From an uncultured Bacilli bacterium (GTDB lineage: Bacteria; Bacillota_I; Bacilli_A; RF39; UBA660): 64,000 nucleotides of DNA. Below, piece by piece: positions 3,625 through 20,006 of this stretch; the stretch's first letter is position 1; each line of letters opens with the position of its first letter. The position numbers and the translations under genes were made by a program. The notes under the pieces were generated by a model. That model was not told the DNA's origin. It did not search any database and worked only from the letters and a program-made list of their open reading frames with translations. Location: positions 18,505 through 82,504 of the forward strand of contig CAKOSZ010000002.1 of NCBI GenBank assembly GCA_934119955.1, given 5' to 3'.

Positions 3625-5187
3625 ATGATAATTAGAAAACCTTATGCCTTTTTAATTAAATATTTTAAAATTATTCATATAATAGTATTTATATTATTAA
3701 CTTTTTCTTTATTTAAGTTAAGAAATATTTACTTGTTTTTTAGAAATTATTTAATAAATGGGGCTTATTTATATACAGATAATATGGCAAGTAGTTATGT
3801 TGGTATTTTGTTTATAATAATAATAATCTTTTTAATTGGTATATTTTTAAGTATTTTTCTTTTAATGAAACAAAAGAAAAAGCCAATCATTTATTATGTT
3901 TTAGCCTTAGTTTATTCAGGTATTTGTTTTATATCTTCATTTGTTTTTATGAGTGCTTTTACATCTCTTGAATATAATACTTTTTCTAATCAATCCTTAG
4001 TATTATTAAGAGATTTGGCAATGATTCTTTATTATAGTGATTATTTATTAATTATTGTTGCCTTTGTTCGTGGTTTTGGTTTTAATATTAAAAAATTTAA
4101 CTTTGAACGTGATTTAAAAGACTTAAATATAACTGATAGTGATAGAGAAGAAATAGAAATAAATTCTTCAATTGACTATGAAAAAATAACAAATTCTTTA
4201 AGAAGAAGCAAAAGAAATTTTTCTTATTATATAAAGGAAAATTCTTATATATTAACAGTTTTCTTAGTAATTACTTTATTAATTATAACGTCAATTCTAG
4301 CAGTTAATAAATTAGTTTATAATAAAGTATACAGAGAAAATCAAGAAATTGTTATTGATAAAGCCAATTTAATTATTAATAATTCGTATTTAACAGATTT
4401 AGATTATAAAGGTAATCTTATTAAAAATAATAAAAAATATGTGATAGTTGATTTTAATATTTATAACCATTACGAAAAGGGAATAAAATTAGATTATTCT
4501 AATATGAAATTAAAGATTGATAATACTTATTATTATGCTAAAAATACTAATGTATTTAGTGATCTTGGTACAGTTTATAAGGGACAAAATATAAAAGCAA
4601 ATACTAATAATAATTATATTTTTGTCTTTGAACTTGCTAAAAATATAAATGTAGAAAATTGTTATTTTGAGTTTTATATTGGATCAAATACTAGTAATGG
4701 TGAGGTTAAGCAAATTGTTAAGAATATTAAAATTAATCCAACTACCTTTTCTTCAAAAGATTTAGGTAAATTTGAATTTAATTCTTTGGTTGAAATAAAC
4801 AATAATTTTATTAAATCTTCTAAATTCAATATAAGTAATGTTACAGTTTTAGATATAGATAATTATAAATATACTAAATGTGGAATAAATGAAAGTGAAT
4901 GCACAGATTATGAGGCAAGTATTTTACCAAGTGTAGGTAAATTATTACTTAAAATTGAGTATTCATATACTGGTAATAATGATTTATTTAAATATGTAAG
5001 TATAAAATATAAAAAGAATAATAAAACATATAAACTTACAAATATCGATAATGTTACTCCTAGTAACTATCCAAGAGAAGATGTTGTTTATCTTGATGTA
5101 CCAAATAGTTTTAAAGAAAGTGACTCTTTAATAATATCTTTTGATGTAAGAGGTACAACTTTTGAATACAATGTTAATAAAATATAG
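3625..5187 (+). CDS. Polytopic membrane protein with about 5 TM helices and a large extracytoplasmic Asn/Lys-rich C-terminal domain; function unknown. The likely start is the ATG at 3625, after AGGAGG.
   Basis: Hydrophobic segments in the first ~230 aa, then a ~300 aa polar domain. RBS aggagg at 3614-3619. Its 3-prime end is included in the tandem duplication described below. Confidence 0.5.
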   Translation: MIIRKPYAFLIKYFKIIHIIVFILLTFSLFKLRNIYLFFRNYLINGAYLYTDNMASSYVGILFIIIIIFLIGIFLSIFLLMKQKKKPIIYYVLALVYSGICFISSFVFMSAFTSLEYNTFSNQSLVLLRDLAMILYYSDYLLIIVAFVRGFGFNIKKFNFERDLKDLNITDSDREEIEINSSIDYEKITNSLRRSKRNFSYYIKENSYILTVFLVITLLIITSILAVNKLVYNKVYRENQEIVIDKANLIINNSYLTDLDYKGNLIKNNKKYVIVDFNIYNHYEKGIKLDYSNMKLKIDNTYYYAKNTNVFSDLGTVYKGQNIKANTNNNYIFVFELAKNINVENCYFEFYIGSNTSNGEVKQIVKNIKINPTTFSSKDLGKFEFNSLVEINNNFIKSSKFNISNVTVLDIDNYKYTKCGINESECTDYEASILPSVGKLLLKIEYSYTGNNDLFKYVSIKYKKNNKTYKLTNIDNVTPSNYPREDVVYLDVPNSFKESDSLIISFDVRGTTFEYNVNKI

Positions 5188-5890
5188 GTGAGTTATGAAA
5201 AATAAAAAAGGATTTGTATTACTAGAAACTTTGGTAGTAACTATATTTACTTTAATAATATTTACTCTTTTATACACATCAACTGTTCCACTTCTTGGTA
5301 AGTATAAAGATTTATCTTATTATAATGATATAGATATTACTTATGATTTATATTATTTAAAAAGATTAATAAAAAATGATAGTAAATATAATGATATTAA
5401 TAATAGTAGTTATCAAAGTATTAAATGTACTGATTTAGAGGATGCTAATACATGTAATAGTTACTTTGATGCTTTAAATATTAAGAAAAATGATGAACTA
5501 GTTTACTTAGATTTAAAAGAACTTAGTGCAAATAAAAAATATTTATCAAGTGATATACTTGATTATGTAAATAGAATTGATAAAAAATATAATAATTCTA
5601 AAATACTTATACTTAAAAGAAATGACTATATATCTTTTGTTAAATGGTTTGAACCAACTGAACCAACTATTGTTTTTGAAAACATAGGTGAAACTAATTC
5701 ATGTGGTTATAAAGATAGTGCAACTGTTAAAATTACTTGTAATTCTCCTGATGGATTTAAATCATTAAAAATAAACAATGAAGAAATTACTGATTTAGAA
5801 AATTTAAAAAGTAAAACTATCGAAAAAACAATTTCATCTTCAACTAGTTTTCAAGTAACTTGTACATCTAAATATGATTTAACTAATAGT
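5109..5890 (+). repeat. Tandem duplication unit 1, covering the 3-prime end of the upstream membrane-protein gene, the RBS and the 5-prime ~700 nt of the pilin-like gene.
   Basis: Near-identical DNA to 6267..7048 at an offset of 1158 bp, with mosaic identity. Confidence 0.8.
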
Positions 5891-7478: not shown

Positions 7479-10397
7479 ATGTATTTAAAAGAAATAGAAA
7501 TATCTGGTTTTAAATCATTTGCTGATAAAATAGATATTAATTTAGATAATGAAATAACCTGTATTGTAGGACCTAATGGATCTGGGAAAAGTAATATTGT
7601 AGATGCTATTCGTTTTGTTTTAGGTGAACAATCAGTTAAATCACTTCGAGGGGAATCTTTAATGAGTGATGTAATATTTTCAGGATCTAAAAATCGTCAG
7701 GGAATGCATGCAGCAAGTGTTAATTTAACTTTTGATAATACAGATAATTACTTGAAAATACCTTATAAAACAGTATCTGTTAAAAGAAGATTATATAAAA
7801 CAGGTGATAATGAATATTTTTTAAATGGAGAAAAATGTCGTTTAAAAGATATAGTAGATTTATTTCTCGATAGTGGCATGGGAAGAGATTCTTTCAATAT
7901 AATTAATCAAGGTGATATATCTAAACTATTATCAAATTCATCTTATGATAGACGTCTTGTAATAGAAGAAGCAGCCGGTATTTTAAAATATAAAAAAAGA
8001 AGAGAAGAAGCATTTAGAAAACTTGATAAAACTAATTTAAATCTTGATAGAGTAAATGATATTATTACAGAAGTAGAAGCAAGAGTAACTCCTCTTAAAG
8101 AACAAAGTGAAAAAGCAAGTCTTTATCTTGGCTTAAAAGAAAAACTTAAAAATGTAGAAGTAGGAGTATTAGTAACTTCAATTACTAATAGAAATCAAGA
8201 ATATTTAACCAGTAAAGAAAAAATAAATGAACTAAACACGGATATTATTTCATTAAGTAAAAAAGTAAATGATCCTGAAATAGATGAACTTAAAATAAAG
8301 TCTCTTAATTTAGAAAAAGATTTACAAAAAATTAATCAAGATTTATTAAACATAACTACATTAAAAGAAGAAATAAATGGAAAAAGATTACTTTTAAAAG
8401 AAAGAATAAAACTTAATGCTAATGATATAAAACAAGAAGAAAAATTAAGCTTTTTAACAGAAAATAAGTTTAAATTAGAAAAAGAAATTAATTTAACTGA
8501 AATTGATTTAAAAACTAAACAAGAAGAAAAAAGTGTTTTAGAAACTAATTTAAATAATAGTTTAAATAATTTAACTGCTTTAAAAGAAAAGGTAAGTTTT
8601 TTAAATAAAGAAATTAATAATAAAAGAAATGATTATGAAGTTTTGTTAAATAAAATAGATATTTTAAAAAGTAATATAACAGATAATATGTATTTAAATA
8701 GTAATGTTAAAAAAATACTTGATAATAAAAACTTAACTGGTATAAATGATGCTTTGCTAAATTTAATTAAAACAAGTGATATGTATAAAACTTGTTTTGA
8801 GGTTTTAACTCTTAGTAATAAGAACTTTATAATAATTGATACTAGTAATGATTCTAAAAATATAATTGATTATTTAAAACAAAATAATTTAGGAAGAGTT
8901 ACCTTTTTACCACGTGATGTTATAAAAAGCAAATATGTAGATTTAGATACAGCAAGAATTTTAACTGATAAAAAAGGTTATTTAGGTATTTTTAGTGATT
9001 TTTTAGAGTATGATTTAAAATATAAAAATATTGTTTTAAATCAATTTGGAAATATTTTGGTTGTTGATACCTTAGAAAATGCTAATAATATAAGTAAATT
9101 AATTAATAATAAATATAAAATAGTAACACTTGATGGAGAAGTTATTCATGTAGGAGGAAGTATAACAGGTGGTTCTTTAAATAATAGAACTATTACTAAA
9201 ACTAAGCAGGAATTAACTGATTTAGAAATAAAAAAGACAACTGATAAAAATATAATAGATAGATTATTAGAAGAAAATAATAATAATTTAGATGATATTT
9301 CTAAACTAGAACAATCTATTTATAAGGATAGAACAGATTTAATTATTAAAATAGAAAGTATTAAAAATTTAGAAAGTAAAGTTGATAATTTAAAGAAAGA
9401 ATTAGATAGTACTTGTTTAGAATTAAAATCTTATAATAATGATAGTGATTTAGAACTTAATGAGTTAAATACTAATTATTATAATAAAACTTTGGAATAT
9501 GAATTACTTTTAAAAGAAAAAGATAAAATTAGTTTAGAAAAAGACAAAATTGGAGAAATTATACTGGAAAAAGAAGGTATTTATAAAGAAAATAATCTTA
9601 ATTTAAAAGTTAAAGAAAAGGAATTAAAAGATCTTGAAATCTTAGTTAGTAAATTAGAAAATATGCTTGATAATGACTTAAATACTTTAAATCAAGAGTA
9701 TAGTTTAACTTATGAAAGAGCAAGAGATGAATATGAATTAGAATTTAATCTTGATGATGCTAAAACTATGGTTTTAGAGTATAAAAATAAATTAAAAAGT
9801 ATTGGTAATGTTAACTTAGATAGTATTGCAGAATATAAAGAAGTTAAAGAAAGATATGATTTTTTATCTAATGAAAGAAATGATTTAGTTAAGGCTAAGG
9901 ATATGTTATATTCTTTAATTAGTGAAATGGATGATGTTATGCAAAGTGATTTTTTAAGTACTTTTAAAGAGTTAGAAGTAGAGTTTAAAAAAGTATTTAG
10001 AGAATTATTTAAAGGAGGAGATGCTTCTTTAAAATTAACTGATCCAAGTAATTTAATGGAAACAGGAGTTGATATAATTGCAAGTCCACCGGGGAAAAAC
10101 TTAAAAACAATTACTCTTTTATCAGGTGGAGAAAAAACTTTAACAGCAATTAGTTTATTATTTGCAATTTTAAATATTCGTAAAGTTCCTTTTTGTATTT
10201 TTGATGAAGTTGAAGCGGCTCTTGATGAAGCAAATGTTGATAATTTTGGTTCATACTTACATTCTTATAAAGATAAAACTCAATTTTTATTAATTACTCA
10301 TAAAAAAAGAACAATGGAGTATGCTAAAACTTTATATGGTATTACAATGCAAGAATCAGGAGTATCTAAACTTGTAAGTGTTAAATTGGATAAATAA
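7479..10397 (+). CDS. smc: Chromosome segregation ATPase SMC. At 972 aa it is short, in the Mollicute/Erysipelotrichia size range.
   Basis: Walker A (GPNGSGKSN), long coiled coils, hinge (LTGINDAL...VVDTLENA), ABC signature LSGGEKTLTAISLLFAI, and D-loop FCIFDEVEAALD. Confidence 0.85.
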   Translation: MYLKEIEISGFKSFADKIDINLDNEITCIVGPNGSGKSNIVDAIRFVLGEQSVKSLRGESLMSDVIFSGSKNRQGMHAASVNLTFDNTDNYLKIPYKTVSVKRRLYKTGDNEYFLNGEKCRLKDIVDLFLDSGMGRDSFNIINQGDISKLLSNSSYDRRLVIEEAAGILKYKKRREEAFRKLDKTNLNLDRVNDIITEVEARVTPLKEQSEKASLYLGLKEKLKNVEVGVLVTSITNRNQEYLTSKEKINELNTDIISLSKKVNDPEIDELKIKSLNLEKDLQKINQDLLNITTLKEEINGKRLLLKERIKLNANDIKQEEKLSFLTENKFKLEKEINLTEIDLKTKQEEKSVLETNLNNSLNNLTALKEKVSFLNKEINNKRNDYEVLLNKIDILKSNITDNMYLNSNVKKILDNKNLTGINDALLNLIKTSDMYKTCFEVLTLSNKNFIIIDTSNDSKNIIDYLKQNNLGRVTFLPRDVIKSKYVDLDTARILTDKKGYLGIFSDFLEYDLKYKNIVLNQFGNILVVDTLENANNISKLINNKYKIVTLDGEVIHVGGSITGGSLNNRTITKTKQELTDLEIKKTTDKNIIDRLLEENNNNLDDISKLEQSIYKDRTDLIIKIESIKNLESKVDNLKKELDSTCLELKSYNNDSDLELNELNTNYYNKTLEYELLLKEKDKISLEKDKIGEIILEKEGIYKENNLNLKVKEKELKDLEILVSKLENMLDNDLNTLNQEYSLTYERARDEYELEFNLDDAKTMVLEYKNKLKSIGNVNLDSIAEYKEVKERYDFLSNERNDLVKAKDMLYSLISEMDDVMQSDFLSTFKELEVEFKKVFRELFKGGDASLKLTDPSNLMETGVDIIASPPGKNLKTITLLSGGEKTLTAISLLFAILNIRKVPFCIFDEVEAALDEANVDNFGSYLHSYKDKTQFLLITHKKRTMEYAKTLYGITMQESGVSKLVSVKLDK

Positions 10398-12277: not shown

Positions 12278-12955
12278 ATGCCAATTATTGGAATAGTTGC
12301 AAGACCAAGTGATAAAGATAAAAAAAAGAATAATTATGTTAGTGAAAATCTACGAAGAGCAGTTATTAAAAGTGGAGGGACGCCCTTAGCAATTTTATCG
12401 ACTGATGAAAGAGTTTATGAACTTGATAATTATTTAAAGGGTGGCTTAAATAAAGAAAGTAAGAAAAACTTAGATAAAGTTTTAAGTCTTTGTGATGGTA
12501 TAATCTTTCAAGGGGGCTCCAAGTTTTATCCAAATGATAAGTATATTGCTAAATATGTAATTAAAAATGATGTTCCAACTCTTGGAATATGTCTTGGTAT
12601 GCAACTTTTAAACCATGTTGATAATCAGGAAAAATCCACTTTAATTAAAATTGATGATCATTTAGATAATAAAAAGTATGTTCATAAAATAAAAATAGTT
12701 AAAAATACTTTATTAAGTGATATCTTAAATCTAGATGAAATGAAAGTTAATTCAAGACATAGACTATCTATTGTAAAATTAAATAAATTTAAAATATGTG
12801 CCACATCACCTGATAATATAATAGAAAGTATATATTATCCAGGAAAAAGATTTATCTTAGGAGTACAATTTCATCCAGAAGATATGTATTTTTATGATGA
12901 ATTTGCTAAATTAATATTTGAAAGATTTATAAAGGAGTGCAATAATGTTAGATAA
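12278..12955 (+). CDS. Class I glutamine amidotransferase-like hydrolase (peptidase C26 / gamma-glutamyl-GABA hydrolase family).
   Basis: Catalytic Cys in GICLGMQLLN and His in QFHPE. The start was moved to MPIIGIV (RBS aaaggg). Confidence 0.65.
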   Translation: MPIIGIVARPSDKDKKKNNYVSENLRRAVIKSGGTPLAILSTDERVYELDNYLKGGLNKESKKNLDKVLSLCDGIIFQGGSKFYPNDKYIAKYVIKNDVPTLGICLGMQLLNHVDNQEKSTLIKIDDHLDNKKYVHKIKIVKNTLLSDILNLDEMKVNSRHRLSIVKLNKFKICATSPDNIIESIYYPGKRFILGVQFHPEDMYFYDEFAKLIFERFIKECNNVR

Positions 12956-14378
12956 GTTTTTAGATGAATATGTTAATAAAATGTATTTAAATTCAAATGT
13001 AAATATGAGTTTAGAACAGAGAAATTTATATACAAGAGAAGATTATTATGCCCTGTTAAGACCAGTTGTTTCTTTGCTTCAAAAGTATCCAGATGATTCT
13101 TTACAAGAATTAAGAGAAAAGTTGTTTGTAAATTCTTCTTTAAGAGAAAAACTAGAAGAATTTATATATGAAAAAAGAATGGCTCCGGGAGCAGTTATTA
13201 CTTTTGGAACGAAGGATTACAAGGAGACTTTAATAGTAGGAAACAGAGAAGAAGTTAGATTAGAAGGAAATAAAATAGTTCCAAGTGTTAAAGAAATGAC
13301 TTATGATACCATTTTTGATTTAGCATCTATTACTAAAATTTTTACAAGTATTAGTATTTTATTATTAGCATCCAAAAATCTTATTAATTTAGATGATAAG
13401 ATTGTTAAATATGCAAGTAATTTTAAAAATTTAAGTGATGTTTCTATCTTTGATTTACTAAGTTTTAAAGTACCTCTTGTAACAAGTAAAAGATTAGATA
13501 ATATATCAGGTGATTCTTTAAAAGAGGTTTTAAATGATATAAAAGTTGGTTATCTTGAACCATACAAGAATCCTTATACAGATATGGGAGCAATTGTTTT
13601 AAAATATGTAATTGAAGCAGTAACGGGTATGCCTTTTTATGATTTTTTAGATAAAGAAATACTTGGACCTTTATTAATGAAAGATACTAATTATAAATTT
13701 CCTAAATATAAATTACAAAGAGTAGCATCTACTAGTTTAGGTGGAGTAATAACAAAGGATTTAAAATTTGATAGGGATACAACTGGAATAATAGGTGTAC
13801 CTCATGATAAAAAGGCTAGAAATTTAGAAATAGATGGCTTGCCAGGACATGCTGGCTTATTTTCGACAGCTCCTGATATGTCTTTATTTGCTAAGGGTTT
13901 AATTAATAATCAAGTTTTACCTCCTTCTTACTTGGAAAGCCTTGCTAAAAATAGAACTGGTAAGAAAGTTATGGTAGATGGAACTGAAAAATACGTTCAA
14001 TACCTAGGTTATCTATGTTATTCAAAACATCCTAACTTGGCAGATTCGGATCTTTTTCATGCAATGTCAGGGAAAAGTTTTGCCTCAGGTGGTTTTACCG
14101 GAGGAGAACTTACAGTTGATCCTTTAAATGAAATATATTTCTTTTTAGGAACTAATCGTGTGCATAATCGTATTGTAAGAGATCTTTCTGGAAATAAAAT
14201 TAAGGAAATGGAAGTAGATGGTAAGATTATACCAAATGTAAGTGATTTTGCCTGGCAAAGAGATAATTATATAATTCATCCTTGTTTATCTCTTGCTATT
14301 CAATATAAAATGTTAGAAGACTTTTATAAATTATGTAAAGAAAAAATTGAAAGTGAAGAATTTGTTAGAAAAATATAG
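12945..14378 (+). CDS. Serine hydrolase of the beta-lactamase / PBP4-like esterase family.
   Basis: S-x-x-K motif (ASITKIFTS) in an otherwise beta-lactamase-like context, and ~470 aa in length. Confidence 0.65.
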   Translation: MLDKFLDEYVNKMYLNSNVNMSLEQRNLYTREDYYALLRPVVSLLQKYPDDSLQELREKLFVNSSLREKLEEFIYEKRMAPGAVITFGTKDYKETLIVGNREEVRLEGNKIVPSVKEMTYDTIFDLASITKIFTSISILLLASKNLINLDDKIVKYASNFKNLSDVSIFDLLSFKVPLVTSKRLDNISGDSLKEVLNDIKVGYLEPYKNPYTDMGAIVLKYVIEAVTGMPFYDFLDKEILGPLLMKDTNYKFPKYKLQRVASTSLGGVITKDLKFDRDTTGIIGVPHDKKARNLEIDGLPGHAGLFSTAPDMSLFAKGLINNQVLPPSYLESLAKNRTGKKVMVDGTEKYVQYLGYLCYSKHPNLADSDLFHAMSGKSFASGGFTGGELTVDPLNEIYFFLGTNRVHNRIVRDLSGNKIKEMEVDGKIIPNVSDFAWQRDNYIIHPCLSLAIQYKMLEDFYKLCKEKIESEEFVRKI

Positions 14379-14411: not shown

Positions 14412-14445
14412 AAGAAGGAATTTGTTATTTTCCTTCTTTTTTTAT
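14412..14445 (+). terminator. Rho-independent terminator.
   Basis: aagaagga-atttgttattt-tccttctt followed by ttttttt. Confidence 0.65.
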
Positions 14446-14449
14446 AAAA

Positions 14450-14466
14450 TGTGAACAAGTTTCACA
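14450..14466. promoter_or_regulatory. Perfect 6-5-6 palindrome TGTGAAcaagtTTCACA upstream of the bacteriocin exporter promoter; a candidate operator, possibly of Crp/Fnr or Rex type.
   Basis: Seen directly in the sequence. Half-sites resemble TGTGA/TCACA boxes, but the spacing differs by 1 nt from the canonical Crp (N6) and Rex (N4) arrangements. Confidence 0.3.
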
Positions 14467-14521
14467 TTTTAACCCTTGCAAACCCTTATAAAATAAGGGT
14501 TTTAAAAAATAAAAAAAATTT

Positions 14522-14565: not shown

Positions 14566-16632
14566 ATGAGAAAAATTACATATGTTAAACAAACAGATTT
14601 ACGAGATTGTGGGGTATCCTGCTTACTTGCTATTACCAAATATTATGGTGGATATGCAACAAGAGAATATTTACGTGAAATTACTAAGACAACAAGAGAG
14701 GGGGTTAATATATATTCCTTAAAAGAAGGAAGTAAAGTCTTAGGTTTTGAAGCGGTAGCAGTAAAGGGGAATATTTTAAATATGAAATTAAAAGTTCCAT
14801 TTATAGCACATGTTGTAAAAAATAATCTTGGTCATTTTATTGTTATTATGAGTATTAAAGAAAAAAGTATTACTATTATGGATCCTAGTAGTGGTATTAA
14901 AAATATAACTTATGATGAATGGAATAATATTACAACTAATGTTTACTTGGAATTAAAACCAGTTACTAAAATTTTAAAACAAGAAAAAACTAATTCTTTA
15001 AAAAATTTATTAGTACCAATTATTAAAAGATATAAAATATTAATTATAATTTTATTTATCCTATCACTTATCTATACCTTAACAAATGTTTTAATATCAT
15101 ATCAGTTAAAATTCTTTATTGAATTACTTGATAATAGAAATATTAATATATTAAAAACAATATTTATATTTTTAATACTTGTAAATATACTAAAAGAATT
15201 ATCTAATTTGTTTAAAAATAATTTACTTAATTATATAAACCATACTCTTGATAAAACCTTGTTTAAAGACATATATAATCATATCATTAAACTTCCATAT
15301 TTATATTTTAAAAATCGTACAAAAGGAGATATAACAACTAGAATACAAGATGTATTTACTATAAGAGATTTTATAAGTAATTTAATTGTTTTAATAACAT
15401 CATTAGTTTTAATGATTACTACATTTATCTTTATGTTAAAAATAAATGTAAAATTAACTATAATTTGTTTAATTTTAACAATTGTATACATAAGTGTTAT
15501 TTATCTTTATAATAATTATTTAAGTAAAAAAATTAAAGAATTAAAAGATGAAGAAATAATTGTAAATAATCATATTATAGAATCAGTTTCATCTATTAAT
15601 ACCATTAAAAGTATGCAAATAGAAAATAAATTAACTGATAGTTTACTAAGTAAATATAAATTATTACAAGATGTAAGTTTTGATTTATATCAAAAAAATA
15701 ATCAAAGTAATTTCTTTAAAAATTTAATTTATGGTTTTTGTTTATTAATAATAATTTATTTAGGTATTAAAGAAGTTTTAAATAATAATTTATCACTTTC
15801 TAGTTTACTTGTTTATCATAGTTTATTATCATTTTATTTTGAACCAATTCAAAATTTAGCATCTATTTCTATGACTTTTAAAGAAGCAAGTGTATCTTTT
15901 ATTAGAATTAATGAGTTATTCAGTGTTAAAGAAGAATTAATAGAACCTGATAATAAAACCATAAATCATCATTTAAAAGGAAATATAAAAGTTAATAATT
16001 TAATATATTCTTATAATGGAGTAGAAAACATAATTAAATGTAATAATTTAGATATTAAAGAAGGAAATAAAGTTTTAGTCTATGGCAAAAGTGGTTGTGG
16101 TAAATCTACTTTAATGAAATTATTGGTTAAATATATTAAAGATTATTCAGGAAGTATTTTAATAGATGATAGAGATTTAATGACTTATAATATTTTTGAT
16201 ATTAGAAGAAAAATAACTTTTGTATCTCAACAAGAAGTACTATATACTGATACTATCTATAATAATATAGTTTTAGATAATAATATTTCTTATCCTGAAT
16301 ATTTAGAAATTATTAAATTAACAGGTGTTGATAATATTATTAAAAGAAGTATTTTAAAAGATGATATGTTAATTGAAAATAATGGTTCTAATTTATCAGG
16401 TGGAGAGGTTCAAAGAATAATTCTTGCTAGATCTTTATGTAAAAAAAGTGATATTTATATATTTGATGAATCTTTAAGTGCTATTGATATTCAAAGTGAA
16501 AGAAAAATTATGGAGAATTTATTTAGTTATTTAAATAATAAAACAGTTATAGTAATAAGTCATAGATTTAATAATCGAGATTTATACCAACAATTTGTTT
16601 GTATGCAAAAAGGAGTAGTATATGATTATTAG
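14566..16632 (+). CDS. Bacteriocin-processing and export ABC transporter with an N-terminal C39 peptidase domain (ComA/LagD/SunT type). The track's GTG start at 14560 abuts the RBS, so the ATG at 14566 is preferred.
   Basis: C39 Cys (DLRDCGVSCLLAI) and His (GHFIVIM). A six-helix TM domain. Walker A GKSGCGKST, signature LSGGEVQRIILARSL, Walker B IYIFDESLSAID. Confidence 0.85.
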   Translation: MRKITYVKQTDLRDCGVSCLLAITKYYGGYATREYLREITKTTREGVNIYSLKEGSKVLGFEAVAVKGNILNMKLKVPFIAHVVKNNLGHFIVIMSIKEKSITIMDPSSGIKNITYDEWNNITTNVYLELKPVTKILKQEKTNSLKNLLVPIIKRYKILIIILFILSLIYTLTNVLISYQLKFFIELLDNRNINILKTIFIFLILVNILKELSNLFKNNLLNYINHTLDKTLFKDIYNHIIKLPYLYFKNRTKGDITTRIQDVFTIRDFISNLIVLITSLVLMITTFIFMLKINVKLTIICLILTIVYISVIYLYNNYLSKKIKELKDEEIIVNNHIIESVSSINTIKSMQIENKLTDSLLSKYKLLQDVSFDLYQKNNQSNFFKNLIYGFCLLIIIYLGIKEVLNNNLSLSSLLVYHSLLSFYFEPIQNLASISMTFKEASVSFIRINELFSVKEELIEPDNKTINHHLKGNIKVNNLIYSYNGVENIIKCNNLDIKEGNKVLVYGKSGCGKSTLMKLLVKYIKDYSGSILIDDRDLMTYNIFDIRRKITFVSQQEVLYTDTIYNNIVLDNNISYPEYLEIIKLTGVDNIIKRSILKDDMLIENNGSNLSGGEVQRIILARSLCKKSDIYIFDESLSAIDIQSERKIMENLFSYLNNKTVIVISHRFNNRDLYQQFVCMQKGVVYDY

Positions 16633-17023
16633 TTGTTTTGATAAATTTAGTTTAAAAATAAAATTTAAAGAATTTATGTATGTATTTTTAATTATAATTA
16701 TGTTATTTATAATTACTTTAAACTTATTTAATATTAAAAATAGATATGAAAGTACTATGAAATTTAATTTATTAAGTAATAATATATTGGAGTTAAATAA
16801 AGTAGATTTAATTGATTTAAAAAGAATTAGTAACTGTAAAAAAGTAATAATAGATAACAATTATTTTAATTTTAATCTAATAGATATAAAAGAGAATAAA
16901 ACTAACTATCTAGTTAAAATTGAAGTATTAAATCTTGATAAAGTTAATTCTTATCAAGTAACATTTCTTGAAAAAGAAGAAAATTTACTTAAATTTATAA
17001 TAAGAAATATGAAAGGAGAATAA
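16622..17023 (+). CDS. Small single-TM protein translationally coupled to the exporter (11-nt overlap); a candidate accessory or immunity factor.
   Basis: N-terminal hydrophobic helix and operon position. There is no similarity to the large HlyD-like accessory proteins. Confidence 0.35.
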   Translation: MIISCFDKFSLKIKFKEFMYVFLIIIMLFIITLNLFNIKNRYESTMKFNLLSNNILELNKVDLIDLKRISNCKKVIIDNNYFNFNLIDIKENKTNYLVKIEVLNLDKVNSYQVTFLEKEENLLKFIIRNMKGE

Positions 17024-17026
17024 AAT

Positions 17027-17173
17027 ATGCAAAAATTAAGTATTAAAGAAATGAAAAATATAAATGGAGGGGGAGTATCAGGAGTAATTGCTGCTATATT
17101 TGGAATTGGTTCATTTATAGCCTTTCTTGCTGGGGTTTTAGATGGTTATACTAGACCTATTAGATGTAATTAG
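17027..17173 (+). CDS. Bacteriocin precursor peptide 1 with a double-glycine leader (MQKLSIKEMKNINGG | GVSGVIAAIFGIGSFIAFLAGVLDGYTRPIRCN).
   Basis: Absent from the ORF track (48 aa). RBS gaaaggag lies 6 nt upstream. A 15-aa GG leader is typical of C39 substrates. The mature peptide is hydrophobic with a GxxxG motif (GVLDG) and a single C-terminal Cys. Confidence 0.7.
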   Translation: MQKLSIKEMKNINGGGVSGVIAAIFGIGSFIAFLAGVLDGYTRPIRCN

Positions 17174-17181
17174 GAGGTTTT

Positions 17182-17352
17182 ATGGAAAAATTAAGTATTA
17201 TAGAAATGAAAAAGATAAAGGGAGGATTAACTTTATCAGGGGCTTTAATTAGTGCTTTTAAAGGATATTACACGGTTTTAAGAGAAATAGGTCAATATTT
17301 TGGCAGTGGTATTAGAAGAATTACAAGTGGTTCATATTGTTCTGTGAGGTAA
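17182..17352 (+). CDS. Bacteriocin precursor peptide 2 with a double-glycine leader (MEKLSIIEMKKIKGG | LTLSGALISAFKGYYTVLREIGQYFGSGIRRITSGSYCSVR).
   Basis: Absent from the track (56 aa). RBS aggagg is present. The leader is homologous to that of peptide 1. The mature peptide is amphipathic, with GxxxG (GQYFG) and a single Cys near the C-terminus. This points to a two-peptide (class IIb-like) bacteriocin. Confidence 0.7.
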   Translation: MEKLSIIEMKKIKGGLTLSGALISAFKGYYTVLREIGQYFGSGIRRITSGSYCSVR

Positions 17353-17355
17353 TTT

Positions 17356-17523
17356 ATGAGTTTAAAATTGAAAAATATTTTTCTTAGTTATATCTTACCA
17401 ATTGCTAGTTTAGTTTTAATGATGATGTTTTCAAAAGTTATGTTTATGTTTCTTTTTCAAATAGGTAGACAGTATGGTTCATTTTTAAGAAATATGTTTG
17501 AATTTAGTTGTAATTTAGTCTAA
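17356..17523 (+). CDS. 55-aa two-TM membrane protein directly after the peptide genes; candidate bacteriocin immunity protein.
   Basis: MSLKLKNIFLSYILPIASLVLMMMFSKVMFMFLFQIGRQYGSFLRNMFEFSCNLV. Small, hydrophobic and positioned as expected for an immunity gene. Confidence 0.4.
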   Translation: MSLKLKNIFLSYILPIASLVLMMMFSKVMFMFLFQIGRQYGSFLRNMFEFSCNLV

Positions 17524-17597
17524 AATGTAACTTTAATAAAAAAAAACATATAATAATTTAGAAAAAGTTAAAAATTATGTTGAATTTTGTTTTAAAG

Positions 17598-17608
17598 TTT
17601 GATATAAT
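17598..17608 (+). promoter_or_regulatory. Extended -10 promoter element (TGaTATAAT) for rpsU.
   Basis: tttgatataatc at about 35 nt upstream of the RBS. Confidence 0.4.
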
Positions 17609-17642: not shown

Positions 17643-17837
17643 ATGACACATGTTGCTGTTAGAAACGGTAATCTAGATGGGGCTTTAAGAAAGTTTAAAC
17701 AAAAAGTTGCACGAGATGGTATCCCTTCTGAATTCAAAAAAAGAGAAGCATATGATAAACCAGGCGTAAAAAGACGTGAAGCTAAAAAAGCAGGTATAAA
17801 GAATGCTCGTAAACGTGAAAGAAATAACAGAGACTAG
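17643..17837 (+). CDS. rpsU: 30S ribosomal protein S21. The track's 5-prime extension to 17577 is not supported.
   Basis: MTHVAVRNGNLDGALRKFKQKVARDGIPSEFKKREAYDKPGVKRREAKKAG... matches the S21 family. RBS aagggaggg is present. Confidence 0.85.
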   Translation: MTHVAVRNGNLDGALRKFKQKVARDGIPSEFKKREAYDKPGVKRREAKKAGIKNARKRERNNRD

Positions 17838-17854
17838 TTTCTAGTCTCTTTTTC
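17829..17854 (+). terminator. Rho-independent terminator after rpsU.
   Basis: agagactag-ttt-ctagtctct followed by ttttt. Confidence 0.65.
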
Positions 17855-17905: not shown

Positions 17906-19309
17906 ATGAAAATAAAAAATTTAGGACAAGTATTTACCCCAATAAACATAGTTAAGGATGTACTAGATGCTGCTGGTTATTCTGGGGAAGTTATTCTTAA
18001 TAAACATGTTATTGATAATAGTTGTGGAGATGGAGCCTTTTTAGTTGAAATAATAAATAGATATATAGATGCTTACTATGAAAAATATAATATACTTACT
18101 AATATTTCAGATGATTTAAAAAAATATATTCACGGAATTGAAATAGATCAAGAAATATATGATATGTGTATTAAAAACTTAAATAATTTATTAGATAGTA
18201 GAAATATAAAAAAAGTTAAATTAGATATTTTAAATAAAGATGCCTTAGGTGTTATAAAATATAATCACAAAATGGACTTTGTTTTAGGTAATCCTCCTTA
18301 TGTAAGAGTTCATAATTTAAGTAGTCAGTATGAAAATGTAAAAAAATATTCATTTTGTAATACAGGAATGACTGATTTATATATTGTGTTTTATGAAATA
18401 GGTCTTAAAATGCTAAACGAAAAAGGGGTTTTATGTTATATTACACCAAATTCCTTTTATAATAGTTTAGCAGGAAGAAAATTAAGAGAATATTTAGAAG
18501 ACAAAAAAAACTTAGAATTAATAATGGATTTAGGTCACTATCAACCATTTAGTGTTACAACTTATACTACTATTTGTAAAATAGTTAATAATCAAAAATT
18601 TCTTGGTTGTAAATATTATAAATATAATACTAAAACAGGAACCAAAGAATTTATTGATTTAATAGAATATAAAAATTTATTTGTAAACAATAATATAATT
18701 TTAGATAATGATTTAAAATATATTAAAATTTTAAACTATGAATTAAAAAAGGATTTAAAAGTAGTTGTAAAAAATGGTTTTGCTACTTTAAATGATAAAG
18801 TATTTATTCAAGATGAGTTTCCTTTTAAGGGAAATCAAATAGATGTTATAAAGGGTTCTACTAATGAAATTAAAAAATGTATTTATCCTTATGATAAAGA
18901 GGGAAAATTAATTCCATTTGAAAGACTAGATAAAAATGTGCAAGAATACCTAGAAAATCATAAAAAAGATTTGATAAAAGAAAATTCTAAGAAAGATTCA
19001 GTTTGGTATGCCTTTGGTAGATCACAAGGTATAAATGATGTGAAATTAAATAAAATATCAATTAATACAACTATTAAAGATCTTAAATCAATTAAATTAA
19101 ATGAAGTACCTGCTAATAAAGGTGTTTATAGTTCCCTATATTTGTTAACTGATGTTTCATTTGAAAAAATTAAATCTCTCATTTATAGAGATGATTTTAT
19201 TGAATATTTAAAGATATTAAATAAATGTAAAAGTGGAGGATATTTTACTTTATCTTCAAAAGATTTAGCAAAATATTTAAATTATTATTTGGAGGAAGAA
19301 AATGAATAA
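17906..19309 (+). CDS. N6-adenine DNA methyltransferase, gamma class and TaqI-like, of a type II restriction-modification system.
   Basis: GQVFTP near the N-terminus (as in M.TaqI x-x-ETP), motif I DNSCGDGAFL, and motif IV NPPY (VLGNPPYVRV). Confidence 0.75.
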   Translation: MKIKNLGQVFTPINIVKDVLDAAGYSGEVILNKHVIDNSCGDGAFLVEIINRYIDAYYEKYNILTNISDDLKKYIHGIEIDQEIYDMCIKNLNNLLDSRNIKKVKLDILNKDALGVIKYNHKMDFVLGNPPYVRVHNLSSQYENVKKYSFCNTGMTDLYIVFYEIGLKMLNEKGVLCYITPNSFYNSLAGRKLREYLEDKKNLELIMDLGHYQPFSVTTYTTICKIVNNQKFLGCKYYKYNTKTGTKEFIDLIEYKNLFVNNNIILDNDLKYIKILNYELKKDLKVVVKNGFATLNDKVFIQDEFPFKGNQIDVIKGSTNEIKKCIYPYDKEGKLIPFERLDKNVQEYLENHKKDLIKENSKKDSVWYAFGRSQGINDVKLNKISINTTIKDLKSIKLNEVPANKGVYSSLYLLTDVSFEKIKSLIYRDDFIEYLKILNKCKSGGYFTLSSKDLAKYLNYYLEEENE

Positions 19310-20006
19310 TGAAGATTTTTTAAAAGTTATAAAAAAATCATTTAATAAGTATTTAGAAACAGGTTCAAGGAGTAATTCTAAATTAAAAATATTACATGGA
19401 GCAATTACAAGTGATTTAAACAAAAGACTAGAAAATTGTTATCAATTACATTCCTTAGGTTATAATGATGATAAAGAATTTAATATGAAGGGACGTTACA
19501 TGGATAAAAAGGTTGATATTGCAATAAGTAACGATAAAGAAGTAATAGCAGGAATTGCTTTAAAGTTTATTATGCGAAATTATTCTCAAAATTCTAACAA
19601 TTATTTTGAGAATATGTTGGGTGAAACAGCAAATATCAGAACTATTGGTAAACCATATTTTCAAATAGTTATAATTCCCTCAAAAATTCCATATTTTAAA
19701 AACGATGGAGTACTTGATCATGTAGAAGTATTATCAGAGAATAACTTGAAAAAATATATTAAATTATCCCATGATAATGTTTTAGAATTTATGCATACAC
19801 CTACTAAAACCTTGATTTATTTAATTGATATGCCTGAAATACCATTAGAAAAAATAAAAAACTATGATGATTATAAAAAATATTATCAAGAAAATGAGAT
19901 AGAAATTTTAGAAAATAATACTAAGTATGATTTTGGTAATTCAGTTATATATAATGATTATAATAAATTTATTGAAAAAATTGTTCATTATATAAAATAT
20001 ATGTAG
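19302..20006 (+). CDS. Putative cognate type II restriction endonuclease. Its start overlaps the methyltransferase stop.
   Basis: Called by position only: it is translationally coupled to an otherwise orphan-looking methyltransferase. It contains a possible PD-(D/E)xK-like segment (VDIAISNDKEVIAGIALK), but no robust motif was identified. Confidence 0.35.
   Translation: MNNEDFLKVIKKSFNKYLETGSRSNSKLKILHGAITSDLNKRLENCYQLHSLGYNDDKEFNMKGRYMDKKVDIAISNDKEVIAGIALKFIMRNYSQNSNNYFENMLGETANIRTIGKPYFQIVIIPSKIPYFKNDGVLDHVEVLSENNLKKYIKLSHDNVLEFMHTPTKTLIYLIDMPEIPLEKIKNYDDYKKYYQENEIEILENNTKYDFGNSVIYNDYNKFIEKIVHYIKYM

Follow-up and report, generated by a model that had tools for sequence, protein, structure and literature searches.

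The 64,000-nucleotide stretch of DNA analyzed here, from an uncultured Bacilli bacterium (contig CAKOSZ010000002.1; hereafter the window), contains a tightly packed five-gene operon that encodes a peptide exporter, a small accessory protein, two short peptides with double-glycine (GG) leaders, PepA and PepB, and the product of a third small open reading frame (ORF), ORF3 (Table 1). The spacers after the accessory gene, pepA and pepB are 3, 8 and 3 nt long, a Shine-Dalgarno site is present on all five genes, and the first terminator-like hairpin found 3' of the cassette in a promoter/terminator scan is located past the ribosomal protein gene rpsU. The original prediction, made from the sequence of the window, had described the three small ORFs as two class IIb-like (two-peptide) bacteriocin genes and a candidate immunity gene, at positions that match those in Table 1 exactly. 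The ORFs were said to be uncalled, which is correct for the ORF track behind that prediction; in public assemblies they are called genes, but unnamed or annotated as "hypothetical". The accessory ORF is, as had been proposed, translationally coupled to the transporter gene through its overlap with the stop codon of the latter.

Table 1. Coordinates of the cassette and of associated features in the window (PCAT, peptidase-containing ATP-binding cassette transporter; ABC, ATP-binding cassette).
Feature	Position	Strand	Details
Palindrome TGTGAAcaagtTTCACA, candidate operator	14450..14466	.	about 20 nt 5' of the TATAAAAT box and 100 nt from the start of the exporter gene
Conserved TATAAAAT box ahead of the exporter	14487-14494		
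Exporter (PCAT)	14566..16632	+	688 aa from ATG 14566; alternative GTG 14560 gives 690 aa
Accessory protein	16622..17023	+	133 aa; 11-nt overlap with the ABC stop
pepA precursor	17027..17173	+	48 aa; leader 17027-17071 (MQKLSIKEMKNINGG); mature 17072-17170
pepB precursor	17182..17352	+	56 aa; leader 17182-17226 (MEKLSIIEMKKIKGG); mature 17227-17349
ORF3, candidate immunity gene	17356..17523	+	55 aa
rpsU (ribosomal protein S21)	17643-17837		own promoter-like site 17580-17608 (promoter/terminator scan)
First terminator-like hairpin past the cassette	17829..17849	+	3' of rpsU; promoter/terminator scan

The leaders of the two precursors, MQKLSIKEMKNINGG and MEKLSIIEMKKIKGG, are homologous, with an alignment score of 52 as compared to a mean of 16.7 for shuffled sequences, and the leader of PepA passes the cutoff of the double-glycine leader model TIGR01847 (17.2, cutoff 15.7). 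A regular-expression scan of both strands identified pepA and pepB as the only GG-leader ORFs in the 64-kb window, and the two genes are thus not a chance pattern. Mature PepA, GVSGVIAAIFGIGSFIAFLAGVLDGYTRPIRCN, is a transmembrane (TM)-like peptide of 33 aa and 3355.9 Da with a net charge of +1, a maximal 19-aa hydropathy of 2.51 and the C-terminal end ..DGYTRPIRCN. Mature PepB, LTLSGALISAFKGYYTVLREIGQYFGSGIRRITSGSYCSVR, consists of 41 aa (4492.1 Da), is amphipathic with a net charge of +4, and contains the motif IGQYFGSGIRRI...C. The homology of the leaders, the lengths of the mature peptides, the motifs GVLDG and GQYFG and the single cysteine near the C-terminus of each peptide had been recognized in the original prediction and are all borne out here. 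The mature peptides are unrelated to each other (hhalign, 0.3%).

We compared the cassette to its relatives in other genomes and metagenomes. In total, 85 loci were annotated systematically, and the fractions given below are the loci with a feature among the loci with enough sequence. A word-indexed search with pepA retrieved only variants of at least 88% identity; distant relatives were reached through the synteny of the exporter and through a metagenome scan with the pepA alignment, which added 79 loci from the human gut, the rumen and anaerobic digesters. The gene for pepB is located downstream of pepA in 78 of 81 loci, and directly adjacent to it in 76, and the exporter gene is directly upstream of pepA in 42 of 43 loci. 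Five loci were picked through the exporter alone, at 63% to 42% identity, and in all of them (5/5) the exporter gene is directly followed by genes resembling pepA and pepB. A lack of conservation in related strains had been named as an argument that would speak against the bacteriocin assignment; since the cassette is kept in 85 loci, that argument fails.

The alignments of 62 non-redundant pairs of pepA and pepB revealed a consistent anatomy. The leader is 15 aa long in 55 of the 62 pairs and follows the consensus L(-12)..E(-8)[LM](-7)..I(-4).GG. The mature PepA peptides (29-33 aa, mean net charge +1) form a G/A-rich, TM-like helix that ends with the near-invariant motif FL[IA]GV[IL]DG[YF]xRPxxC[NR] in the 62 orthologs. 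The mature PepB peptides (37-43 aa, mean net charge +3.2) are amphipathic and carry the motif [LI]G[RKQ]xxGxA[IF]RR, with the cysteine exactly 8 residues past this motif in 58 of 58 sequences. The near-C-terminal cysteine is present in 62 of 62 sequences for PepA and PepB alike, and it is the sole cysteine in 61 of 62 mature PepA and 56 of 61 mature PepB peptides. At least one GxxxG motif was identified in 100% of the mature PepA and 98% of the mature PepB peptides, and [GAS]xxx[GAS] motifs occur on average 3.5 and 4.4 times per peptide, respectively.

Proteins in which pepA and pepB, or the accessory gene and pepA, appear to be fused were rejected as artefacts of gene calling, in which the stop codon is read through as W or Q. 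Such calls were observed among relatives outside the window (P0148-P0152, P0172, P0177, P0178, P0181), and they are consistent with the calling of low-GC contigs under translation table 4. The ..C[NR]-stop end of pepA, which is kept across all stop-codon types, argues for the use of TGA as a stop codon in these organisms.

These data effectively refute the explanation that the small ORFs are chance frames in AT-rich DNA. The ORFs are short and the genome has a GC content of about 22-27%, as such an explanation would have it, but the frames, lengths and motifs are kept in 62, 62 and 44 non-redundant orthologs of pepA, pepB and ORF3, respectively, in loci with a GC content that ranges from 19 to 44%. 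The ratios of nonsynonymous to synonymous substitution rates (dN/dS) of 0.11-0.22 in close pairs, the Shine-Dalgarno sites and the absence of any further GG-leader ORF from the 64 kb argue in the same direction.

The exporter contains a C39 peptidase domain (PF03412, Peptidase_C39, 99.5 bits), a six-helix ABC membrane domain (PF00664, ABC_membrane, 114.7 bits) and an ATPase domain (PF00005, ABC_tran, 88.3 bits). In 6 of 6 sequences, those of the window and five orthologs, the catalytic residues are intact within the motifs Q-x4-D-C17-G, G-H92-F and M-D108-P, in the numbering of the 690-aa form. By homology to PCATs, PepA and PepB would be cleaved and exported by this protein. The score against the model TIGR01193 was 375.4 bits, below the curated cutoff of 523.85, with the architecture and the catalytic motifs present. 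The second-best model match, NF045998 (Mbov_0121 C39-ABC), was also below its cutoff (319.7 bits, cutoff 500). The orthologs form a group of their own at 41-66% identity, in metagenome-assembled genomes that are labelled as Erysipelotrichaceae, Bacilli or Firmicutes bacterium. The most likely start of the exporter gene is ATG 14566 rather than GTG 14560, because of the public gene calls, the position of the ribosome-binding site and an exact 688-aa protein on record; the GTG start is the choice of a mechanical ORF list.

Class IIb bacteriocins are defined by two adjacent peptide genes, by GG leaders of 15-30 aa that a dedicated ABC transporter removes, by an immunity gene within the same operon, by GxxxG motifs and by synergy of the peptides; GxxxG motifs are present in all characterized class IIb peptides (PMC2850506). 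At the sequence level, the adjacent gene pair, the GG leaders, the C39-ABC exporter and GxxxG motifs in both peptides were all found in the cassette. We consider it somewhat probable that the product of the cassette is an unmodified, class IIb-like bacteriocin of two peptides, which is served by a dedicated exporter and by an immunity protein of a decoy-like kind. It is a previously unnamed putative family of uncultured low-GC Bacilli from gut, rumen and digester.

The accessory proteins of bacteriocin exporters usually comprise about 450 aa and resemble HlyD/LcnD. The accessory protein in the window starts with a TM helix, which is followed by a compact, beta-rich domain (about 85 aa) and, at the C-terminus, by a short helix that ends with ..NMKGE, and the AlphaFold2 model (predicted local distance difference test score, pLDDT, 82.9) placed a helix at residues 2-36, strands over residues 39-121 and a helix at residues 122-131. 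An exhaustive HMMER/phmmer search of 1.84 billion representatives recovered only 18 relatives, of 98-143 aa and 29-41% identity, with no long HlyD/LcnD-type protein among them. No match to the HlyD-type models in Pfam/NCBIfam was found for 17 members of the family, and the profile search of the PDB gave no hits. The best Foldseek match in the PDB (E = 0.011, TM-score about 0.3) was to unrelated small beta-barrels and was not significant. In most loci, the gap between the ABC gene and pepA holds a comparable ORF of 128-160 aa, the start of which overlaps the ABC stop and the end of which abuts pepA; some loci have a stub of about 40 aa there that comprises the TM segment only, and a few have nothing. 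The view that the usual HlyD-like protein is replaced by a small single-TM protein is upheld by these results, in that the protein belongs to a family of its own and neither sequence nor fold similarity to HlyD/LcnD/ComB-type secretion accessory proteins was found. The GC content is 15-21% in the accessory gene and in the part of the exporter gene that encodes the membrane domain (positions 15000-17000), 27% in the peptide genes and about 25-30% in the flanks. This dip probably reflects the I/L/F/N/K-rich composition of membrane proteins rather than a foreign origin.

ORF3 begins 3 nt past pepB and is adjacent to it in 50 of 75 loci, and its assignment as an immunity gene is positional. It had been described as a protein with two TM segments; instead, its hydrophobic residues form a single uninterrupted stretch of about 26-30 residues, and the tail after it is amphipathic. 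The protein has a basic N-terminus, a single TM helix with a conserved proline and the motif [FY]x[LI]GxYxG[TS]F[LIV]R, and a cysteine is found among the last 8 residues in 31 of its 44 non-redundant orthologs. The amphipathic C-terminal module, QIGRQYGSFLRNMFEFSC, resembles the C-terminus of PepB. Mature PepB and ORF3 were aligned by hhalign with a probability of 89.6% (E = 1.9e-6), as compared to 0.1-0.3% in the controls with PepA; the alignment spans 27 columns, with the cysteine among them. The score of 29.1 was reached in none of 600 column shuffles (300 per alignment; mean 7.5-7.9, maximum 16.8), and the reversed ORF3 alignment scored 10.0. The PepB motif itself, GQAVG...C, is even found literally in the ORF3 of one lineage. 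From the shuffle controls and the latter case, the most fitting description of ORF3 is that it copies or mimics the C-terminal module of PepB in a membrane-anchored form, which may have arisen by duplication or convergence. The original prediction of a probable immunity factor was right about the position, while the likeness to PepB suggests a more specific role than that of a generic factor.

Based on these features, we infer a mechanism that combines membrane attack, a possible disulfide bond and decoy immunity. PepA (48 aa) and PepB (56 aa) would be made with 15-residue GG leaders, the C39 domain would cut after Gly15 and the ABC transporter would export the products, presumably assisted by the single-pass accessory protein, which would be co-translated with the pump and expose its beta-domain on the extracytoplasmic side. 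Mature PepA is predicted to be a TM-like helix that carries a glycine zipper and ends with a short cationic tail, and mature PepB a cationic amphipathic helix. The two peptides may pair via their GxxxG faces in the target membrane and thereby permeabilize it. The invariant cysteines near the C-termini may in addition link PepA and PepB as a disulfide heterodimer, for which a parallel orientation is needed and which would have a mass of 7846.0 Da in the oxidized form. ORF3 would reside in the membrane of the producer with its PepB-like module facing outward, where it could protect the cell by serving as a decoy, either for PepA or for the receptor.

The conserved cysteine also bears on another interpretation, namely that the peptides are precursors of ribosomally synthesized and post-translationally modified peptides (RiPPs), for example of the S-glycosylated, glycocin-like type or of the lanthipeptide or sactipeptide type, with the cysteine as the modification site. 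Besides the invariant single cysteine near the C-terminus of each peptide, this interpretation draws on weak, leader-level matches to models of lantibiotic and radical-SAM RiPP precursors. However, all of these matches are below the cutoffs, and one cysteine is insufficient for a typical lanthionine or sactionine pattern. No modification-enzyme gene is conserved in the five-gene core or in its flanks across the annotated loci; in particular, genes for a glycosyltransferase, LanM/LanBC, a radical-SAM protein or thioredoxin are not conserved within the cassette or next to it in the 85 loci, in which the flanks vary and the core is constant. We regard RiPP precursors as highly improbable.

It is likewise very unlikely that the two GG-leader peptides are signalling pheromones of the ComC/BlpC/PlnA type. 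Such pheromones are also served by GG leaders and PCAT exporters, and weak matches to the ComC, EntF induction factor and VP1 pheromone models were obtained, but the matches are confined to the leader and are below the cutoffs. The mature peptides, with 29-43 aa, TM-like or amphipathic helices and glycine zippers, are unlike the known short pheromones. In none of the annotated loci does a conserved gene for a histidine kinase, response regulator or Rgg-type regulator lie beside the cassette. Also, the earlier observation that no two-component or quorum-sensing gene is nearby agrees with the Pfam-annotated syntenic loci, in which none was identified within about 8 kb. The lack of a conserved modification enzyme, kinase or regulator thus argues against both the RiPP and the pheromone explanation.

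We also estimated the strength of selection on the peptides. Because saturation of dS in AT-rich DNA inflates the dN/dS values for the whole set, pairs of loci were binned by the divergence of the ATPase domain of the exporter and compared with this domain and with S21; the locus pairs are not phylogenetically independent, and the values are descriptive. For close pairs (n = 25), dN/dS was 0.116 for mature PepA, 0.108 for mature PepB and 0.221 for ORF3, as compared to 0.133 for the ATPase domain. At intermediate divergence (n = 84), dN was 0.150 for mature PepA, 0.399 for mature PepB, 0.578 for ORF3, 0.316 for the ATPase domain and 0.276 for S21. Both mature peptides are clearly under purifying selection, with no sign of diversification.

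Several of our results weigh against the bacteriocin reading, and they concern both family membership and evolution. PepA of the window scored 17.9 bits against the class IIb model TIGR03949 (lactobin A/cerein 7B) and missed the cutoff of 21.5. Two of its orthologs passed (L015, 22.6; L016, 23.1) and three failed (L019, 21.0; L017, 15.5; L018, 15.1), and on these profile scores the PepA family is a borderline member that straddles the cutoff. PepB, ORF3 and the accessory protein matched no Pfam/NCBIfam family, including the bacteriocin and immunity families. The best scores against NF038034 and NF038035 (lactococcin G beta/alpha, enterocin 1071) and PF10439 (Bacteriocin_IIc) were 23.1, 17.8 and 20.2 bits, with cutoffs of 37, 37 and 27.1. 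Profiles of both peptide families gave no match to PDB sequences, including those of solved two-peptide bacteriocin structures. A putative resemblance to PlnJ (SSxKG, GxAIRR) was not recovered by this search and serves as a lead only. A single-chain AlphaFold proxy for the heterodimer was rejected as uninformative on packing and cysteine proximity (pLDDT 59), and the anaerobic gut makes the formation of an extracellular disulfide uncertain.

The second group of results concerns the inheritance of the cassette. Many bacteriocin loci are strain-variable and mobile. The cassette studied here, on the other hand, looks like a core-gene-like, vertically inherited set. The exact pepA sequence was found on at least 134 contigs, mostly from human-gut metagenomes, and the housekeeping genes that flank the cassette have contig counts equal to those of pepA. 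The full cassette is present in eight syntenic loci, each from a different sample, and is flanked there by the genes for trigger factor, GATase and a beta-lactamase-like protein and by rpsU, NUDIX and miaA. The matching counts and the syntenic loci thus suggest that the cassette is core in this species. The rpsU gene is located within 1.5 kb downstream of pepA in 32 of 57 loci, across deep divergence, and no relative of the cassette was found in the plasmid, phage and IMG/VR collections searched. There is one peptide pair per locus, without any multi-bacteriocin expansion. The dN/dS values of the mature peptides equal that of the ATPase domain, and dN of PepA is half that of the ATPase domain at intermediate divergence. 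In summary, the hallmarks behind the original two-peptide bacteriocin assignment stand, whereas the score of PepA below the TIGR03949 cutoff, the lack of a family for PepB and the core-like evolution of the cassette do not fit it as well.

The core-like, constrained, rpsU-linked and non-mobile pattern leaves room for a non-antagonistic function, in which the membrane-active peptide pair, exported by the bacteriocin machinery, would serve the physiology of the producer, for example its envelope or membrane or contacts among kin, as a core function of the clade. We consider this role, the main alternative, possible, but unlikely. In its favour, the mature peptides are under the same purifying selection as the ATPase domain and have not diversified, a single pair occurs at a site fixed beside rpsU in 32 of 57 loci with a core-like abundance in the species, the searched collections of plasmids, phages and viruses contain no copy, and the exporter and accessory protein show sub-threshold matches to NF045998/NF045999. 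However, all class IIb sequence hallmarks are present, including an immunity-like third gene, and a frameshifted copy in one locus (L072), losses of the accessory gene or ORF3 and the failure to detect ORF3 in a third of the loci argue against an essential role. Conserved chromosomal two-peptide bacteriocins also exist: CibAB of the pneumococcus is a chromosomal, species-conserved two-peptide bacteriocin with a small membrane immunity protein, CibC, and belongs to the competence regulon, with the transporter encoded elsewhere. This case implies that conservation does not exclude a killing function.

A more far-reaching version of the bacteriocin reading is doubtful at present. According to it, the product would be an obligate disulfide-linked heterodimeric toxin, ORF3 would be a membrane-anchored decoy derived from or mimicking the PepB module (G-x3-G-x2-[IF]-R, with the cysteine 8 residues on), and the cassette would be an ancient core trait of a large uncultured Bacilli lineage, passed on vertically and paralleled by a sister system in mycoplasmas. 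Its use would lie in the discrimination of kin or the defence of a niche, and not in that of a mobile weapon.

On its own, a putative bacteriocin operon is nothing unusual, because a large 2025 survey reports thousands of GG-leader precursors in gut genomes (PMC12648112). The main text of the IIBacFinder gut survey contains no mention of this clade. Public sources name the peptides merely "hypothetical protein", and neither the motifs of PepA and PepB nor an intermolecular disulfide in class IIb bacteriocins was found in the searchable literature. What goes beyond the ordinary is the breadth and constancy of the family, the module shared by PepB and ORF3, the invariant cysteine in each peptide and the non-HlyD accessory protein. 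If active, the peptides would add a new family to the unmodified two-peptide bacteriocins, one that comes from abundant uncultured Bacilli of the human gut, rumen and digesters. The motifs FLIGVIDG[YF]VRPLKC[NR] for PepA and [LI]G[RK]xxGxAIRR-x7-C for PepB could be made into annotation models. Three ideas were not found in the searchable literature: a covalent disulfide pair, an immunity protein that copies a module of the peptide, and an accessory protein of about 130 aa that replaces the HlyD-like protein. Finally, the core-gene-like conservation makes the cassette a useful case for the discussion of non-antagonistic roles of some "bacteriocin" cassettes.

The region upstream of the exporter gene contains the palindrome TGTGAAcaagtTTCACA, with the half-sites GTGAA/TTCAC and a 5-nt spacer, which occurs once in the window with 0 occurrences expected by chance. 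L017 and L018 carry it at the matching position (-115 to -119), but it is found in only 3 of 28 distinct upstream regions, which are those of the closest relatives only and not family-wide, with a background expectation of 0.007 per 220 nt. It is a candidate operator. A conserved TATATTATAT is located just 5' of the ribosome-binding site of the exporter gene. No canonical GAAC-N4-GTTC box was found upstream of the exporter. Control by SOS/LexA was rejected, since a divergent LexA-like gene is present in merely 4 of 38 loci and a Cheo box is absent. The LexA/S24-like repressor genes encode proteins of about 180 aa and are divergent from the exporter gene (L015, 3300-3839; L017, 3283-3837; L018, 3291-3836; L066, 1880-2410, minus strand).

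Directly 5' of the cassette, at positions 12945-14378, is a gene for a 477-aa protein with a beta-lactamase fold (PF00144), which shares 11 nt with the GATase gene before it and is followed by a hairpin terminator of its own at 14414-14443 (GAAGGAA..TTCCTTC followed by T7). This gene is placed outside the system because it is not kept beside the cassette in other lineages. Downstream, a restriction-modification island at 17906-20006, between rpsU and the NUDIX gene, consists of two overlapping ORFs, one for a methylase of the Eco57I type (467 aa, PF07669) and one of 234 aa without a family. It is strain-variable, being present in the window and in L004 and replaced by a 37-aa ORF in at least six other strains of the same species. 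Some lineages have no accessory gene or no ORF3. In L072, a frameshifted and decayed copy of the cassette is located at 4200-5320, which is intact in L068; in L026, an unrelated ORF of about 228 aa (597-1280) is inserted between intact pepA and pepB genes; and in L015, an IS605 OrfB/TnpB gene (8017-9165) is located just downstream of the cassette.

Finally, we compared the cassette to known systems. The exporter shares the three-domain architecture and the intact C39 Cys/His/Asp residues with PCATs of the ComA, LagD and PCAT1 type (TIGR01193), but it falls below the curated cutoff of that family and represents a separate orthologous group in uncultured Bacilli. Among the peptide families, TIGR03949 is matched by six of six tested members of the PepA family over the leader and the G/A-rich core (profile positions about 2-45), but the C-terminal motif DG[YF]xRPxxC[NR] of PepA is outside the match and PepB is not matched.

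A similarity was also observed to a protein pair in mycoplasmas, NF045998 (Mbov_0121) and NF045999 (MAG1140, 126 aa). The accessory protein of the window gave no match to NF045999 at E < 1, but two distant orthologs matched positions 4-126 of 126 with 19.9 and 17.4 bits. The matches of the exporter and of these accessory orthologs are both below the cutoffs (500 and 35 bits). No published function for the pair was found in the literature. The consecutive accessions, together with the sub-threshold matches, hint at a sister exporter/accessory pair and suggest an uncharacterized sister cassette in Mycoplasmopsis.

In gene content, the cassette is also close to operons of the lactococcin G type, lagA-lagB-lagC-lagD-lagE (PMC2850506), which have adjacent peptide genes with GG leaders and GxxxG motifs, an immunity-type gene next to them, and a C39-ABC transporter and accessory gene in the operon. 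As in those operons, one of the partners is hydrophobic and the other is cationic and amphipathic. However, no similarity of mature PepA and PepB to the mature peptides of lactococcin G/enterocin 1071 was detectable. The cassette further differs from the lactococcin G-type operons in that the exporter gene comes first, ORF3 shares a module with the beta-type peptide, each peptide has one invariant cysteine, the conservation is core-like with no copy found on mobile elements, and the accessory protein has only about 130 aa.

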